Source: Candidatus Hydrogenedentota bacterium (lineage in GTDB: Bacteria; Hydrogenedentota; Hydrogenedentia; Hydrogenedentales; SLHB01). From it: DNA of 64,000 bases. The DNA lies in NCBI GenBank assembly GCA_963745075.1, contig CAVUWV010000001.1:320001-384000 (forward strand). The letters run 5' to 3'. The notes under the pieces are model-generated. The model was given only the letters and a program-made list of their open reading frames with translations. It searched no databases and was not told the DNA's origin. This document shows positions 49,022 through 54,148 of this stretch, piece after piece; the first letter of the stretch is position 1, and the number at the start of each line of letters is the position of its first letter. The translations under genes were made by a program, and so were the position numbers.

Positions 49022-49804
49022 TCAACTGAGCAGATATTTGGTCAGGTGGTCCCACGCGTTCGTCTGCGCCACACGCATGATGAGGAAACTCCAGACGACA
49101 AGTACGGCGTATCCCGTGGCGTAGTATCGGTCCCAGGACCGCGTCAGCAACCGCTTGACGACAAGGAACACCAATCCCAAAACCAGCACGCCAAAGAACG
49201 GACCGAACAGGGCGCCGCACAGGGTGCCCGCGTAGAGGTTTCTAATCGCTTCGACGCGGTCCGTGGCGGCGGGGATGGCAGCCATGGTGGCCAACAGCAT
49301 CATGGGGCGATGGATCTTCACCCGCTTTCGGTTCCACACGCCGACGAAGACGAAAGCGCCGAAAAGCAGGATGCTGAAGAGCGGGACCGCCAGAAAACGG
49401 TTGGGTTCGAGATTCCACAGTTTGAGGTCCGGCGGGTTGACGCTCGCCGCCGCAAAGGCCACTTTGAGGCCCGCCAGCACGATGCCGGCCGCGAGCACCG
49501 CCCCAACACGGCCGGCCATCATATGAACGCGCCGGTTCCCGGTGACCACCAGGAGCGGCTGGGCCAGGAACAACAGCATCCAAGCCGTCATCGCGATCCC
49601 GTGGAGGATCAGCCAGATTCGAATGGGCGGAGTGAGTTCCCGATGGGGGAATGCCTTGCCGTGCAGATAAAACTGCTGGAAACCCAGGAACATGATCGTC
49701 AGGAGCAGCAAGGCCGCTCCCGTGTAAAAGTAACGTCCGAAATCGATCTTTGCATGCGTCTTCGGTTGGGGTTCGTCCAATGATAAGGTCTGGCTCGTGC
49801 CCAT
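49022..49804 (-). CDS. Hypothetical multi-pass membrane protein with conserved His residues
   Basis: HG...AW..L...Q..L, R.H...G and HR..MLLA motifs; 7 TM segments. Confidence 0.7.
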   Translation of the reverse strand: MGTSQTLSLDEPQPKTHAKIDFGRYFYTGAALLLLTIMFLGFQQFYLHGKAFPHRELTPPIRIWLILHGIAMTAWMLLFLAQPLLVVTGNRRVHMMAGRVGAVLAAGIVLAGLKVAFAAASVNPPDLKLWNLEPNRFLAVPLFSILLFGAFVFVGVWNRKRVKIHRPMMLLATMAAIPAATDRVEAIRNLYAGTLCGALFGPFFGVLVLGLVFLVVKRLLTRSWDRYYATGYAVLVVWSFLIMRVAQTNAWDHLTKYLLS

Positions 49805-49939
49805 GATTTGACAGTTCCTCTTTGTTTGAATGTGGCGCTCAACGCGCTCGATCCCCGGACCGGATCGGGGATCGATTCACCAGAAGCGCAGATAGTACTC
49901 CAAGTCATTTGAGAAAAGGTAGCGGAATCTCAAGCGTTT

Positions 49940-50015
49940 CGTCCGTCTCGTCCCTGCCATCCCCGTCCCTGCTGCCCCTGCTGTCCGTGTAGGTCCGTGT
50001 AGGTCCGTGTAGGTC
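49940..50015 (+). repeat. gtccct / gtccgtgtag simple repeats
   Basis: gtccgtgtaggtccgtgtaggtccgtgtaggtc. Confidence 0.75.
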
Positions 50016-50089
50016 AAGTCCGCGTTCCATTGTTTCATTTCCCTCCGCACTGCAACGCCCCGGCCTATCTTTATAAGGAGATTTCCGCC

Positions 50090-51672
50090 ATGACAAACCA
50101 CCCCAAACGCCCCCGCCCTCAAAAACGAACGAATCTCGGCACCCCCTGCGCCCGCACCTGGACCAACGACTGGATCGCCACCGTCAACGCCAAAGAAGCC
50201 GGAACTCAACCACCGAATCTGCGGCGCCCGCCTCCCCGACGCCACGCCCGTTGCACCAATGCTTCCGACCACCCCTCCGGCCGCTGCCCATTCCACGGCG
50301 GATTCGACCTCACCGGCGCACCCCCCGGCAACCGCAACCACGTAATCCACGGCCTCTACTCCCGCCGCCTGAGACCCTGCACCCCCAACTGCCCCCACTG
50401 GGAAAATTGCCCCCTCGCCAACCGTCATCCTCATCCTCTCGAACGCGGGGAACACGGGGACCCATCTTCTCTCCAGCCTTCTACAAATCCACAATCGGAA
50501 GACCCATCTTCGCAATCCCAAACGTCCGATCCGACCGATCGGTGCGATCCGTCCCATTCTTCCCAACCCCCAAACCCCACACCCCCGCAACAGGATCGTC
50601 ATCCTCGCGACAGCGGGGACCCATCTTCCCAATCCGATCCGTCCAATTCTTCCGATCCGTCCTATAGGTCCCATACGTCCTATAGGTCCTATCCCCCCAA
50701 CGCCACGCCGACGCAATCACCGCCCACCTGCCCCTACCAACTCGCCGAATACAACACCGTCCTCACCGACGCCCTTGCCGTCGTCGAATCCCAGCCCCAC
50801 CCCAACCCCATGGGCATCCACGCCGCCCACAACGTCGCCATGCTCCAAGTCCTCGTCAACGCCGCCACCGCCCACTTAGCGCAAGCCCCAAACCTCGGGT
50901 CTTCCTCTGAAGCATGGCCTTCCCCCCCTGGGCACGGGCGTCCCGCCCGTGTTCTTCCTCTTCATCCGCGACATGGGCTTCAAGCCCATGTCCTCCCGAA
51001 AACCTTAACCCCAACACCATCCTCGCCTTCACCCGCCTCATGCGCGAGTACCGCCACACACTAAAACTTCTCCAAACACCGGGGTACACCCCCTTGAACC
51101 GTCACAATTCCGCGGGTGCACCCCCCTCCCCCGACGGCATCCTCCGCCACGTCCAACGCACCCAACACGACACCGGTCTCGACCCCGATTCCATCGCCGC
51201 CGCTCAACTCGAGCCCCAAACCCCCGAGACCCACGCCAAAGCCTACATCCAACGCGCCGCCCTCGCCGGAGGACAAGGTCGCGACGTGGAAATGTGCGAA
51301 GCCTTCGATAACGCCGCCCTCATCGACGAACCCTACGCCGAATCCGAACGCGATCACGTCCTGGCCAGCTACCGCCCCGCAAAACAATCCGTCTCCCAAG
51401 AACTCGCCGAACTCATCCTCGGCAACCTTCATCTGCCGCCCCGACCCACAACCCACGAACAGAACCCCGACACAACCAAGCCCAACACCGACCACCCAAC
51501 AAACGAAGAATCCGACGATGTGCTCCAACACTTCCTCGACCTCATAAGAGAAGGGAAAATGCCCCCCGAAGCCTTCCCCATCGGCTCCCCCCTCCGAGCC
51601 CACGTTGAAGCCATCTACACCGGCCCACCCACCACCACAACCAAGCCCACCGGCGAAGCCGGCTCCGAGTAG
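50090..51672 (+). CDS. HGGxSTG-like zinc-finger protein, terminase small subunit-like; frameshifted and REP-interrupted
   Basis: AAGGAG RBS; correcting two local indels gives ICGARLPDATPC...GRCPFHGG; then GAPPGNRNHVIHGLYS, a TerS-type motif; frame change at about 50900-51000 inside a REP-like insert. Confidence 0.6.
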
Positions 51673-51679
51673 TCCTTAT

Positions 51680-51826
51680 CCGTCCATATCGTCCGTGTAA
51701 GTCCGTGTAAGTCCGTGTAAGTCCGTGTAAGTCCGTGTAGCCCAGTTGTAGCGCAGGCGTCCCCGCCTGCAATTCCTGAGACAGAACCCCAAAGAATGCA
51801 GGCGGGGACGCCTGCGCTACATCCGC
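51680..51826. repeat. gtccgtgtaa x5 followed by a GTAG REP doublet
   Basis: gtagcgcaggcgtccccgcctgca ... tgcaggcggggacgcctgcgctac. Confidence 0.8.
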
Positions 51827-51959
51827 CGCTCAACCCCGGAGTGAACCCCCAAAAATGCTGCGCACCCCCAACCACCTATCGTCCTCCCCCTACTACCCAC
51901 CAAAGCTCAATAACGCAAGCAGGCTTGCCTCGCCGAAGCTGACAAGCGAAGGCGGGTCC

Positions 51960-53490
51960 ATGTGTCCGTCCATCCCATCCCGCACCCGCTTCGCCCGCCA
52001 CTACCTCCGCGACCGCCACGGTTCCCCCTGGGCGCCTTGGCCGTATCAGTCTTTGTCCTTGGAATCCCTCGCACCTCGGAAGGTGCATTGCGATGGGCGG
52101 GATGTGGGGAAAACGTCGGAGATCGAGATCGTGGCGGCGTGGGCGTCGGTGATGCGGCCGAATTCGCAGATGTTGATTGCGACGCAGTGTGAGAATCATT
52201 TGTTTCCGTTGATGGACCGGATCGTGCGGGTGTTTGAAAGCGATTCATGGAAAGAGGGACAGACCGGTCTCGACGGAATGAAAGAGGGCAATGAAAGAGG
52301 GACATGGGCGTGGAAAAGAGGGACAGACACGTCTCGCTTCGCTCGCTTGCGTCAGTCCCTCTTTTCCGGTCGCTGGGGTCAGTCCCTTGGTGGAGGTGAA
52401 GCGGACGCCGTCGTGGTGTTTGCGGTTTGCGAACGGGTTTGTGTTGTGGGGGCGGATTGCGGGGCCGCACGGGATGAATTTCCAGGGGCTGCACGTGGAT
52501 TGGCAGATTGTCGACGAGGCGCAGGAGATGACGGATGCGGCGTGGGAGGAGATGTTTCAGGCGTTGAACGCCGGCGGGTGGCGCTGGGTGTATGGGGTGC
52601 CGAACGGGTTGCGGAACACGTTTCACCGGATGACGACGGACCCGGACGCGGAGCAGTACAACTGGCCGTCGTCGTCGAATCCGGCGTGGTCGGCGGAGAA
52701 GGAGGCGGAGTTGGCGCGGCTGTATGGCGGCAAGGATTCGCCGGGGTACATCCATCGGGTGCTGGGGCAACACGGTTCGCCGGCGTATGCGGTGTTCGAT
52801 CTGAATGCGTATCTCGCGTGTGTGGACGGGGGGCTGGAGTGGTTCGAGGCGTCGCTGGGGGAGGACGATCCCTTCGAGGCACCGTCGGGCGTGGCGAAGG
52901 GCACCCATTATCTGGGCTGCGACCTGGGGTACGTGCGCGATCCGTCGGAGTTTGTGATCTACCGGAGTGCGCCGCCGGATTTGGTGAACGTGGGGCGGGT
53001 ACACTTGCACGGGGTCAATTATCATCGGCAGCAGGGCATCATCGAGGAGTTGGATCGCGCGTATGACTTCCGGGCGATCGGCATCGATGCGGGGAACAAC
53101 GGGAGCGCGGTGGCGCATAACCTGAAGAACATCGACGTGGACTGGCATGAGAAGGTCATGGCGTTCGAGTTCGGGGGCGTATGCGAAGCGGGGTCGTTTC
53201 CGGACGGGTCGCCGGACCGGCGTCCGACGAAGCTGTTCATGACGGAGCTGTTGCAGCGGCGGATGGCGGACCGGACGATTGTGTTTCCGCCGCCGGCGGA
53301 TCGGGAGTCGCAGTACGCGGGGCACACGTATACCGCCGGGATGCGGGGGCAGGTCCTGTTCGACAAGGGGAACGACCACATTATCGACGCGGATCGGTGC
53401 GCGGTGCTGGCGCATTACCTCGACACGCAGGAGGTGGGGGCGCAGAACGTCGGTGGGTACTATCCCCGTCTCCGGTTGGAGGCGTTTTAG
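51960..53490 (+). CDS. Phage terminase large subunit-like protein (ATPase plus RNase H nuclease); 1-nt frameshift near 52385 and a palindromic insert
   Basis: PWPYQ (adenine-binding Q), GRDVGKT (Walker A), QIVDEAQ (Walker B), GVPNG (motif III-like), YLGCDLG, GIDA and NDHIIDA nuclease aspartates. Confidence 0.8.
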
Positions 53491-53633
53491 TGTTGCAAGT
53501 TGGCGAATCCCTTACAATTCAATCGAAATCGAAATCGAAATCGAATTGCAAAGGCAACGTGTCTGCGATTTCGATCCCGATTTCGGCAGCGGCGAGACTG
53601 GCATGCTGCGCAGTCAGGAGCGCGCGGCGCAAC

Positions 53634-53879
53634 TTACGTATCGGACGTGACATTTTCGCGCCAGCGCGCTTCAATCGTGTCAGCGGAAAGATCGGCCCCG
53701 CACCGCCACTCGACATAGTAGCTCCCGTTGCGAACCTGGGAAAACTCGACCCAGTTTCGCAACGGCACAAAGGCCGGCGATTCGAAATACGGGCGAACAT
53801 CGAAGATGCCGGAGCGGCCGTCTTCGGCGACCACATGCAGCGTGCCGTTTTCCTGTGGAGTGACCGTTGCGATTCTCAC
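53634..53879 (-). CDS. DUF2442 putative antitoxin
   Basis: DG.SG.FD..PY...F.PL...F..V...VEW..GADL..DTI; GTGA overlap with DUF4160. Confidence 0.8.
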   Translation of the reverse strand: MRIATVTPQENGTLHVVAEDGRSGIFDVRPYFESPAFVPLRNWVEFSQVRNGSYYVEWRCGADLSADTIEARWRENVTSDT

Positions 53880-54148
53880 TGATCCAATCCTCGAATAGGC
53901 AAGGGATTCTGGCCGTTTACAGCCAGTTCCCAATCCGCCATCAAGTCTTCCTGATGAATCTCGATCCAGGCGACCACCAGTTTATGCTTCTTCGGCGGCA
54001 GACTACCTGCCAACACGCTTCCGTCCGCAATCGAATACACGGCGACCTCGCCCTGATAGTCCGCATGAATGTGTGGCAAGTGATGTCTGTCTGTGTCGTG
54101 AAAGAACATTCGGATCAAAATGCCGTAGAACATCGATATCGTAGGCAT
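53876..54148 (-). CDS. DUF4160 putative toxin
   Basis: MPTISMFYGILIRM...HHLPHIHA.Y...WIEIH..DLMADW. Confidence 0.88.
   Translation of the reverse strand: MPTISMFYGILIRMFFHDTDRHHLPHIHADYQGEVAVYSIADGSVLAGSLPPKKHKLVVAWIEIHQEDLMADWELAVNGQNPLPIRGLDQ

Follow-up and report, generated by a model that had tools for sequence, protein, structure and literature searches.

The window analysed here, a 64-kb stretch of DNA (positions 320,001 to 384,000 of contig CAVUWV010000001.1, assembly GCA_963745075.1), comes from the 6.8-Mb, 36-contig genome assembly of a Candidatus Hydrogenedentota bacterium (89.7% complete; labelled G000 in what follows, where the window is G000:C1:320001-384000 and C stands for contig), and it was analysed within a comparison set of 61 genomes of the order, labelled with G numbers. 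It contains a terminase module made up of a Cys/His-motif small-terminase-like gene, designated HGG, and a paralogous large terminase downstream of it, designated TerL2, together with two short motifs, P and M. Within this module the base composition of the strands switches abruptly from C-rich to G-rich. The features concerned are the following:

50051..50092, plus strand: motif P, a promoter-like TGCAAC...TAT with a ribosome-binding site and ATG, found by nhmmer; putative promoter.
50090..51672, plus strand: HGG small-terminase-like gene, whose coding strand is C-rich and which carries a frameshift near 50,890-51,020 in this assembly (PHROG 9231, family alignment).
51081..51126, plus strand: motif M, consisting of a C-run, a TTGWHYCGTCAA core, an A-tract and a GGGTGCACCC palindrome, found by profile search; candidate pac-like recognition site inside the HGG gene.
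51960..53490, plus strand: TerL2, a large-terminase paralogue with a Walker A-like motif at 52092-52115 and a Walker B-like one at 52501-52518, matching the PHROG terminase large subunit at E 2.8e-15; frameshifted near 52,240-52,340, where a small repeat is inserted.
49925..52077, no strand: C/A-rich arm, the minus strand being G/T-rich (base composition).
52050..52080, no strand: skew switch point, candidate cut or initiation zone (cumulative G-C minimum at 52,077).
52078..53627, no strand: G/T-rich arm (base composition).

A first-pass annotation, made from the letters of the window, had reported that a C-rich stretch gives way to a G-rich one inside the TerL frame right before Walker A, that both genes involved lie on the plus strand and that synonymous positions appear to carry the change. 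Its base counts proved exact (34 C and 9 G in 51121-51180; 28 G and 11 C in 52441-52500), and the cumulative G-C minimum at 52,077 does fall just 5' of the Walker A codons (52092-52115). HGG and TerL2 are indeed both on the plus strand, although both are frameshifted in this assembly. The GC skew was -0.398 across 50090-52030 versus +0.280 across 52080-53490 (Fisher p = 2e-54). The lowest skew among 27,102 1-kb windows in G000 was that of the window at 50,251 (-0.456; standard deviation (sd) 0.070), and the flip over 1.4 kb, +0.64, was the largest C-to-G flip in the genome (~10 sd; genome sd 0.061).

Most of the flip is carried by third codon positions, at which the skew was -0.63/-0.74 in the upstream gene and +0.76/+0.41 in TerL past the switch, against a genome mean of -0.08. 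The skew stayed strong in both arms at four-fold degenerate sites, with C at 0.72 and G at 0.11 in the upstream gene and G at 0.87 and C at 0.10 in TerL codons 60-460 (genome 0.405/0.389), so that the synonymous character of the change held up. At two-fold sites TerL has G over A by 38 to 4 and T level with C at 43 each, and the upstream gene has A over G by 35 to 3 and C over T by 57 to 14. The G-rich strands run 5'->3' outward from the site, enriched in T over C and in G over A. The G-rich strand is also shifted C-to-T and A-to-G, though the four-fold sink is G and not T; a shift of this kind has been attributed to deamination of exposed single strands (PMC3269012). A long fold-back between the two arms was rejected as a candidate cause, just short, non-concentric inverted repeats being found.

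The position of the switch was examined in relatives. TerL2 shares about 70% identity with the core TerL of the same genome (C8:332-333k), 81-84% with the TerL2 of G003, G004, G005 and G015, and 77% with that of G021, and a separate TerL2 protein 94% identical to that of the window exists; the named homologues of the window terminase come from Candidatus Hydrogenedentes/Hydrogenedentota. A PDB sequence search with TerL2 matched nothing, and IMG/VR gave no match to it. Where HGG and TerL2 stand in tandem (window, G003:C42 and G015:C5, the last a natural in-frame fusion of 947 amino acids at G015:C5:266-3109 with an internal ribosome-site-like signal before TerL2), the first ~30-40 aligned TerL2 codons end in C (G/C 2/12, 1/8 and 0/5) and later ones in G. 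The early codons of the G004 TerL2, whose upstream sequence is cut off, likewise end in C (1/8). TerL2 genes pointing away from HGG (C24, G021) have G as the last base of these codons (9/0 in both), and a switch of this kind was absent from core TerL at 25 loci. In all three tandem loci the cumulative minimum falls on matching codons, to within about 15 bp, despite M being at 0.97 kb, at 2.4 kb and, as an M-like sequence only, at <1 kb.

Because tandem TerL2 loci in two genera flip at the same codons, the junction is not an assembly chimera, and the recurrence in G003, G004 and G015, the independent 94%-identical TerL2 and the p value of 2e-54 leave chimera or chance a negligible probability in spite of the indel-type breaks in both window genes. 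Gene calls in the G000 assembly also split other genes, which we take to be rpoB, rpoC and tuf, so assembly indels are plausible and the HGG and TerL2 of the window were not called pseudogenes. The small palindromic repeat insertion in TerL2 (window 52250-52367), encoding a KEGQTRL-like repeat, is in frame in relatives, in which its copy number varies. Among public sequencing runs the best share of the stretch's words was 0.08, with no RNA run among the runs listed.

The HGG family comprised 85 matches, every named member of which belongs to Hydrogenedentota, and HGG genes were found in 19 of the 61 genomes, two of them marginal. PHROG 9231 (terminase small subunit) was matched by 57 of 63 aligned family members and phrog_1889 by 48, through the N-terminal HGG region only, and the family scores below NCBIfam cut-offs. 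Among viral loci with an HGG domain (n = 30), 14 continue with an open reading frame of >300 amino acids, 11 of these with a Walker A-like motif. The monomer model (predicted local distance difference test, pLDDT, 80) consists of a helical hairpin and a TPR-like tail, and a PDB sequence search returned TPR-like matches in the C-terminal part of the protein. The best ESM Atlas match (0.89) was a Hydrogenedentota cluster, a Terminase_4 cluster at 0.78 being a lead only, and no similarity was detected between the HGG protein and core TerS. The gene lies directly upstream of terL in tandem in the window and G003:C42 and is fused to TerL2 in G015. Family similarity and position upstream of terL, two of the marks of a TerS, are both found in HGG, and its predicted product is TerS-like.

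Four HGG copies are present in G000 (C1, C24, C27 and C36), with an intact 474-amino-acid paralogue at C36; two of the four have no terL nearby and one is divergent from it. The close HGG genes are C-rich in all copies, and distant HGG genes are G-rich in several genomes. Short remnants of the 3' end of the gene occur at G000:C12:1-190 and C35:16150-16340.

Profile searches of G000 with nhmmer returned 39 matches to P and 42 to M. The 40 M matches at E<=0.01 fall into 27 loci, namely the 4 whole HGG genes and 23 mini-elements, the first of which were found at a large skew jump without an HGG gene (C1:149-151k) as two short remnants in which the upstream motif is joined to the internal one. M lies inside close HGG genes at 10 of 11 loci and is conserved in the mini-elements, and would correspond to the conserved sequence in or beside terS by which a pac site is recognised. 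Its exact pattern occurred in 9 of the 61 genomes (reversed control, 0) and was not found in those holding only distant HGG genes; 34 stretches of GTDB genomes carried M, all Hydrogenedentota records except one labelled Nitrospiraceae, with 0 matches in IMG/VR. As a stable hairpin M was not convincing (z -0.25 on the plus strand, -1.84 on the minus strand).

P-like sites were located 5' of the portal gene, at an internal site of the head cluster, and before core terS and the C24 TerL2. Among the 19 relatives that could be tested (6 of the 25 loci were not testable), 9 have such a site before core terS, versus 141 of 4726 genes. Two further P-like sites, G000:C20:222846 (plus strand) and C24:16094 (minus strand), stand before near-identical genes of unknown function, possibly of the same regulon, and a solitary P site of the TerL2 type lies at C12:141175, 4 kb away from an M locus.

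The first-pass annotation missed that the window flip, the largest in G000, is one of about 27 such sites. Across the whole genome the four-fold skew follows a sawtooth, rising in abrupt jumps and decaying slowly after each (skewness 1.7 at 20-40 kb). The four largest local C-to-G flips in G000 are those of the four HGG copies (0.64, 0.61, 0.57 and 0.48; next 0.34). Jumps at M loci were measured in G000 at four-fold sites over 20 kb per side, excluding 2 kb beside M. The 22 of 27 M loci with enough flank had a mean jump of +0.110, 15 of them being positive (permutation p 5e-5 versus random positions), and mini-elements alone gave a mean of +0.091 (12/18 positive; p 0.001), two neighbouring ones sharing one jump. 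M was found within 10 kb of 6 of the 16 largest upward jumps versus 6.8% of positions (p 4e-4), and of none of the 16 largest downward ones.

Folded over four M/HGG jumps, the skew drops from 0.63 in the first kilobase to 0.38 at 1-2 kb, is about 0.15 out to 60 kb and reaches 0.04 at 90-130 kb. At whole-gene loci with an M match the switch lies 620-972 bp downstream of M in 7 of 10 cases and 1.9-2.4 kb downstream in the other three; in mini-elements it is located at M itself. In G015, which belongs to another genus, 10 sites were sampled from 16 matches, and all six two-sided ones jump upward. HGG loci in five other genomes, measured as total rather than four-fold skew, showed a jump in 8 of 10 cases (+0.04 to +0.30; the other two at 0.00 and -0.03), as did 2 of 3 in G019.

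Orthologous genes were then compared in pairs. The 52 element loci from relatives included 46 with G000 orthologues, 11 of them syntenic, and two of these were excluded since M is present in G000 too; the jump was bigger where the element is present in 9 of 9 pairs (sign test p 0.004). This link between element presence and a larger jump is suggestive, since three pairs are loosely syntenic and most have few sites on one side. Together, the synonymous sites, the same-codon flip in orthologous tandem loci, the decay with distance and the exclusion of a chimera bear out the earlier idea of a local strand-asymmetric process centred near 52,050-52,080.

Capsid and core terminase genes lie elsewhere in the genome. 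Portal, capsid, Dit-like and weak holin-like genes occupy G000:C8:462484-472324, with P-like sites at 472376 and 468954, and this head cluster is 10-20 kb to the right of the strongest jump (C8:452k), which has no M. The core TerS/TerL pair (G000:C8:332009-334043) sits among housekeeping genes, with a P-like site and no marked skew. Core TerL is present in 56 of the 61 genomes and a single-copy capsid gene in 55, the two being adjacent in G047, G022 and G057. Caudoviricete-derived proteins that are endogenised, often over several loci, are one mark of a gene transfer agent (GTA), a type of viriform (PMC9662315), and this is the arrangement seen here in gene content. ComEC and DprA homologues also occur in G000; they are common in bacteria and lend weak support to the mechanism proposed below.

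The module itself is an insertion: the flanks of the block are joined in G003 (empty site G003:C9:79.5-81.1k), G004 and G005 with 0.6-1.6 kb between them versus 5.4 kb in the window, and across genomes HGG-TerL2 is patchy and mobile. The other features of the block are:

49022..49804, minus strand: gene for a 260-amino-acid membrane protein travelling with the module; absent from the empty site in G003/G004/G005, beside HGG in G003:C1 and beside TerL2 in G005:C475; Pfam matches weak.
51691..51821, no strand: 10-bp microrepeats and a REP-like 25-bp inverted repeat (repeat scan).
53634..54148, minus strand: small DUF2442/DUF4160 gene pair, toxin-antitoxin-like (Pfam), within the stretch missing from empty sites.

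No integrase, initiator, helicase, primase or transposase was detected among 28 proteins scanned at the four HGG loci, some neighbours having no Pfam match, and no long flanking repeats were found within 49,700-53,800. By these signs the block does not appear to be a prophage or an integrative element with its own origin. The REP-like hairpin was discarded as the cause of the flip because its family, sampled at 24 copies remote from M, gave no jump (9/24 positive, mean jump -0.014).

Three observations, the recurrence of the module and its motifs at jumps, the sharing of P with the capsid operon and core terminase, and the polarity of the flips, underlie the mechanism we propose, in which P-driven induction, M binding, cutting and packaging are predicted steps. 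The flip would be a pac-like terminase cut zone of a predicted GTA-like system, whose repeated cutting, transfer and repair leave the skew, a reading to which we assign about an even chance. On induction, P would drive the HGG small terminase together with capsid and terminase genes; the predicted HGG protein would bind M and set TerL to cut 0.6-1 kb downstream, and packaging would proceed outward both ways from the cut. Headful terminases are known to cut at or near pac (PMC5000459), and RcGTA DNA is taken up via competence proteins (PMC7296036). Since GTA producers lyse (PMC11841831), the heritable change would have to arise in recipients or in cells that survive the cut. Fragments of fixed polarity to the cut would be imported single-stranded and/or prime outward repair forks, and, their polarity being fixed, the same strand would be exposed each time. 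Module DNA, always beside its own cut site, would approach saturation (four-fold skew 0.7-0.8), and flanks would be partly converted (0.15-0.3), fading over 60-130 kb; mini P-M elements would be non-autonomous sites spreading via preferential packaging.

The observed polarity is given by last-packaged-first ejection followed by 3'-first single-strand uptake, by outward recombination-primed forks at fragment ends, and by repair of the cut from the sister chromosome, and equally by a true origin. Because this polarity is common to cut and origin models, sequence alone cannot tell them apart. Of the two sources offered in the first-pass annotation, a bidirectional replication origin fits less well and a pac-like cut better, given the TerS-like gene, the capsid/terminase promoter and the lack of a replication initiator, integrase or transposase among the scanned neighbours.

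Several observations weigh against a pac-like cut zone. No M lies within 15 kb of three of the six strongest broad jumps (C8:452k, C18:22k and C10:391k), in an assembly that is 89.7% complete, and no convincing degenerate M was found at such jumps; of the M-less regions C10:391-409k and C18:19-21k, one is presumably near dnaN (with no adjoining dnaA) and one between what we take to be zapA-like genes, a tRNA and recA. A jump is missing at many mini-elements. M loci in other assemblies (n = 34) included 10 that were two-sided, with flanks up to 8.5 kb, and 5 of these were positive, as were 2 of 4 one-sided G015 sites. The effect in G000 lies downstream of M (21/26 positive, mean +0.099) and is absent upstream (12/23 negative, mean -0.015), whereas in G015 it is two-sided; nor does the reading account for a switch that lies 0.6-2.4 kb downstream of M in whole genes yet at the motif itself in mini-elements. 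Samples of 20 kb from the closed genomes G051 and G047, neither of which yielded an HGG gene, are irregular in skew as well, and G047 flips away from dnaA. A Foldseek search with the HGG model returned no match at E<=0.001 in PDB or BFVD; particles, cuts and M binding are predicted from sequence, and the amplitude of the skew demands very frequent transfer or cutting. As separate observations, G000:C22:14000-20500 is a 6-kb low-GC, strongly C-rich region (-0.2 to -0.38) that contains few gene calls and neither an HGG nor an M match, and contig ends, considered as jump sites, showed a trend by eye but no shared repeat.

Auxiliary replication origins, through Bartonella-like run-off before packaging or routine multi-origin replication, with the HGG protein or a terminase cut as initiator, are possible but rather doubtful. 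Upward jumps with slow decay are what several origins with dispersed termination would produce, there are 27 M loci in 6.8 Mb, and the base spectrum resembles that of a leading strand (PMC3269012). A standard bacterial oriC, with a single flip near dnaA and gene co-orientation, was not what we observed, the window flip being one of many jumps. In relatives the skew kept its sign across dnaA at each of nine loci with complete flanks, where jumps ranged from -0.042 to +0.045 (another locus was cut by a contig end), a point in favour of auxiliary origins. On the other hand, no initiator, helicase or primase stands beside the four HGG copies among the genes scanned, the marker protein is TerS-like and under a capsid-type promoter, gene strand is independent of local skew (47.6-52.1% co-oriented with the G-rich strand), and dnaA is kept in 56 of the 61 genomes (it was not found in the incomplete G000 assembly) versus just 19 for HGG. 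That no local process is ongoing we consider unlikely; HGG and TerL2 would then owe their C-richness and G-richness, respectively, to inheritance, transcription or selection, and the flip would be a junction left by recombination or gene conversion in the 5' end of TerL2. In favour of this, the TerL2 coding strand is G-rich in both arrangements, close HGG genes are all C-rich, the 5' TerL2 codons resemble a mosaic of the window, C24 and G003 copies, and the switch keeps to TerL2 codons and not to a set distance from M; yet inheritance leaves unaccounted the jumps in ordinary flanking genes, on both strands and over 20-60 kb, as well as the 9/9 paired result, and G-richness fades along TerL2 in G015. 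Nor does transcription from P set the sign, because capsid genes range from -0.46 to +0.78 in coding-strand skew and some distant HGG genes are G-rich.

Finally, the elements might insert into, or survive at, pre-existing jumps such as rearrangement breakpoints and fragile or stable-replication sites. REP-like repeats and small gene pairs concentrate at these loci, some strong jumps lack M, and only 11 of 52 loci are syntenic in G000, with flanks often rearranged; but breakpoints would give both polarities, whereas the jumps are nearly all of one, empty G000 sites show the smaller jump in 9 of 9 pairs, and REP hairpins alone carry none, which makes this explanation improbable.

Compared with known systems, the arrangement resembles RcGTA and DsGTA in its phage-derived terminase, portal, capsid and tail-tip genes, fixed over several chromosomal loci and single-copy across the order. 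Unlike these, which have no known start motif and a single TerS, G000 carries an extra multi-copy TerS-like/TerL2 module, a conserved motif over ~27 sites and a compositional footprint, in a system predicted from its genes. GTAs package mostly random host DNA, from which defined start sites would depart. Headful-phage pac and pseudo-pac sites and lateral transduction offer a second parallel, with a recognition site in or near terS, a cut nearby (PMC5000459; PMC12946183) and flanking chromosome packaged in situ; here, however, the sites are multi-copy and host-chromosomal, each with a promoter motif and with no prophage, integrase or phage origin, the signal is often two-sided, and TerL2 and M have no IMG/VR match. 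Bartonella run-off replication likewise ties an extra phage-derived, origin-like centre to a GTA, BaGTA (PMC2697382, in the main text of which 'skew' is absent), but from one origin beside a helicase gene, unlike the many sites without helicase or primase found beside them in G000. Cyanobacteria, Wolbachia and Wigglesworthia share the lack of a two-replichore pattern and the many polarity changes (PMC3269012; PMC7198777), whereas here they take the form of one-way jumps linked to a gene and a motif that can be identified. Our literature search, which did not extend to subscription papers and supplements, returned no report combining Hydrogenedentota with GC skew or linking pac or GTA packaging to strand skew; the two that mention both Hydrogenedentota and gene transfer agents were unrelated. 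The flip is real, and appears to reflect pac/GTA-type packaging with an unusual genome-wide footprint, for which the above mechanism is proposed.

DsGTA packaging shows seven peaks, which were proposed to reflect two-way initiation at discrete sites for which the account reports no motif (PMC5786225), and a 2019 source describes no discrete GTA packaging start site as known (PMC6854486). P-M would be a concrete candidate packaging start sequence where, by these accounts, none is defined for any GTA. A bolder extension, which we hold to be doubtful, is that a selfish terminase module seeded dozens of promoter-plus-pac sites, and that break-initiated sites, rather than dnaA/oriC, set the strand asymmetry of a chromosome replicated or rewritten from many phage-derived sites. 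In this order skew does not point to an oriC at dnaA, there being no flip there, and if the packaging reading is true, skew-based origin calls, completeness checks and replication-rate estimates would fail in Hydrogenedentota. A selfish driver would then be riding on a domesticated packaging system, packaging start points would have left replication-origin-like scars across the whole genome, and GC skew would be a fossil record, readable in assemblies of uncultured bacteria, showing at which sites, and how frequently, host DNA is cut and moved by a GTA-like system.

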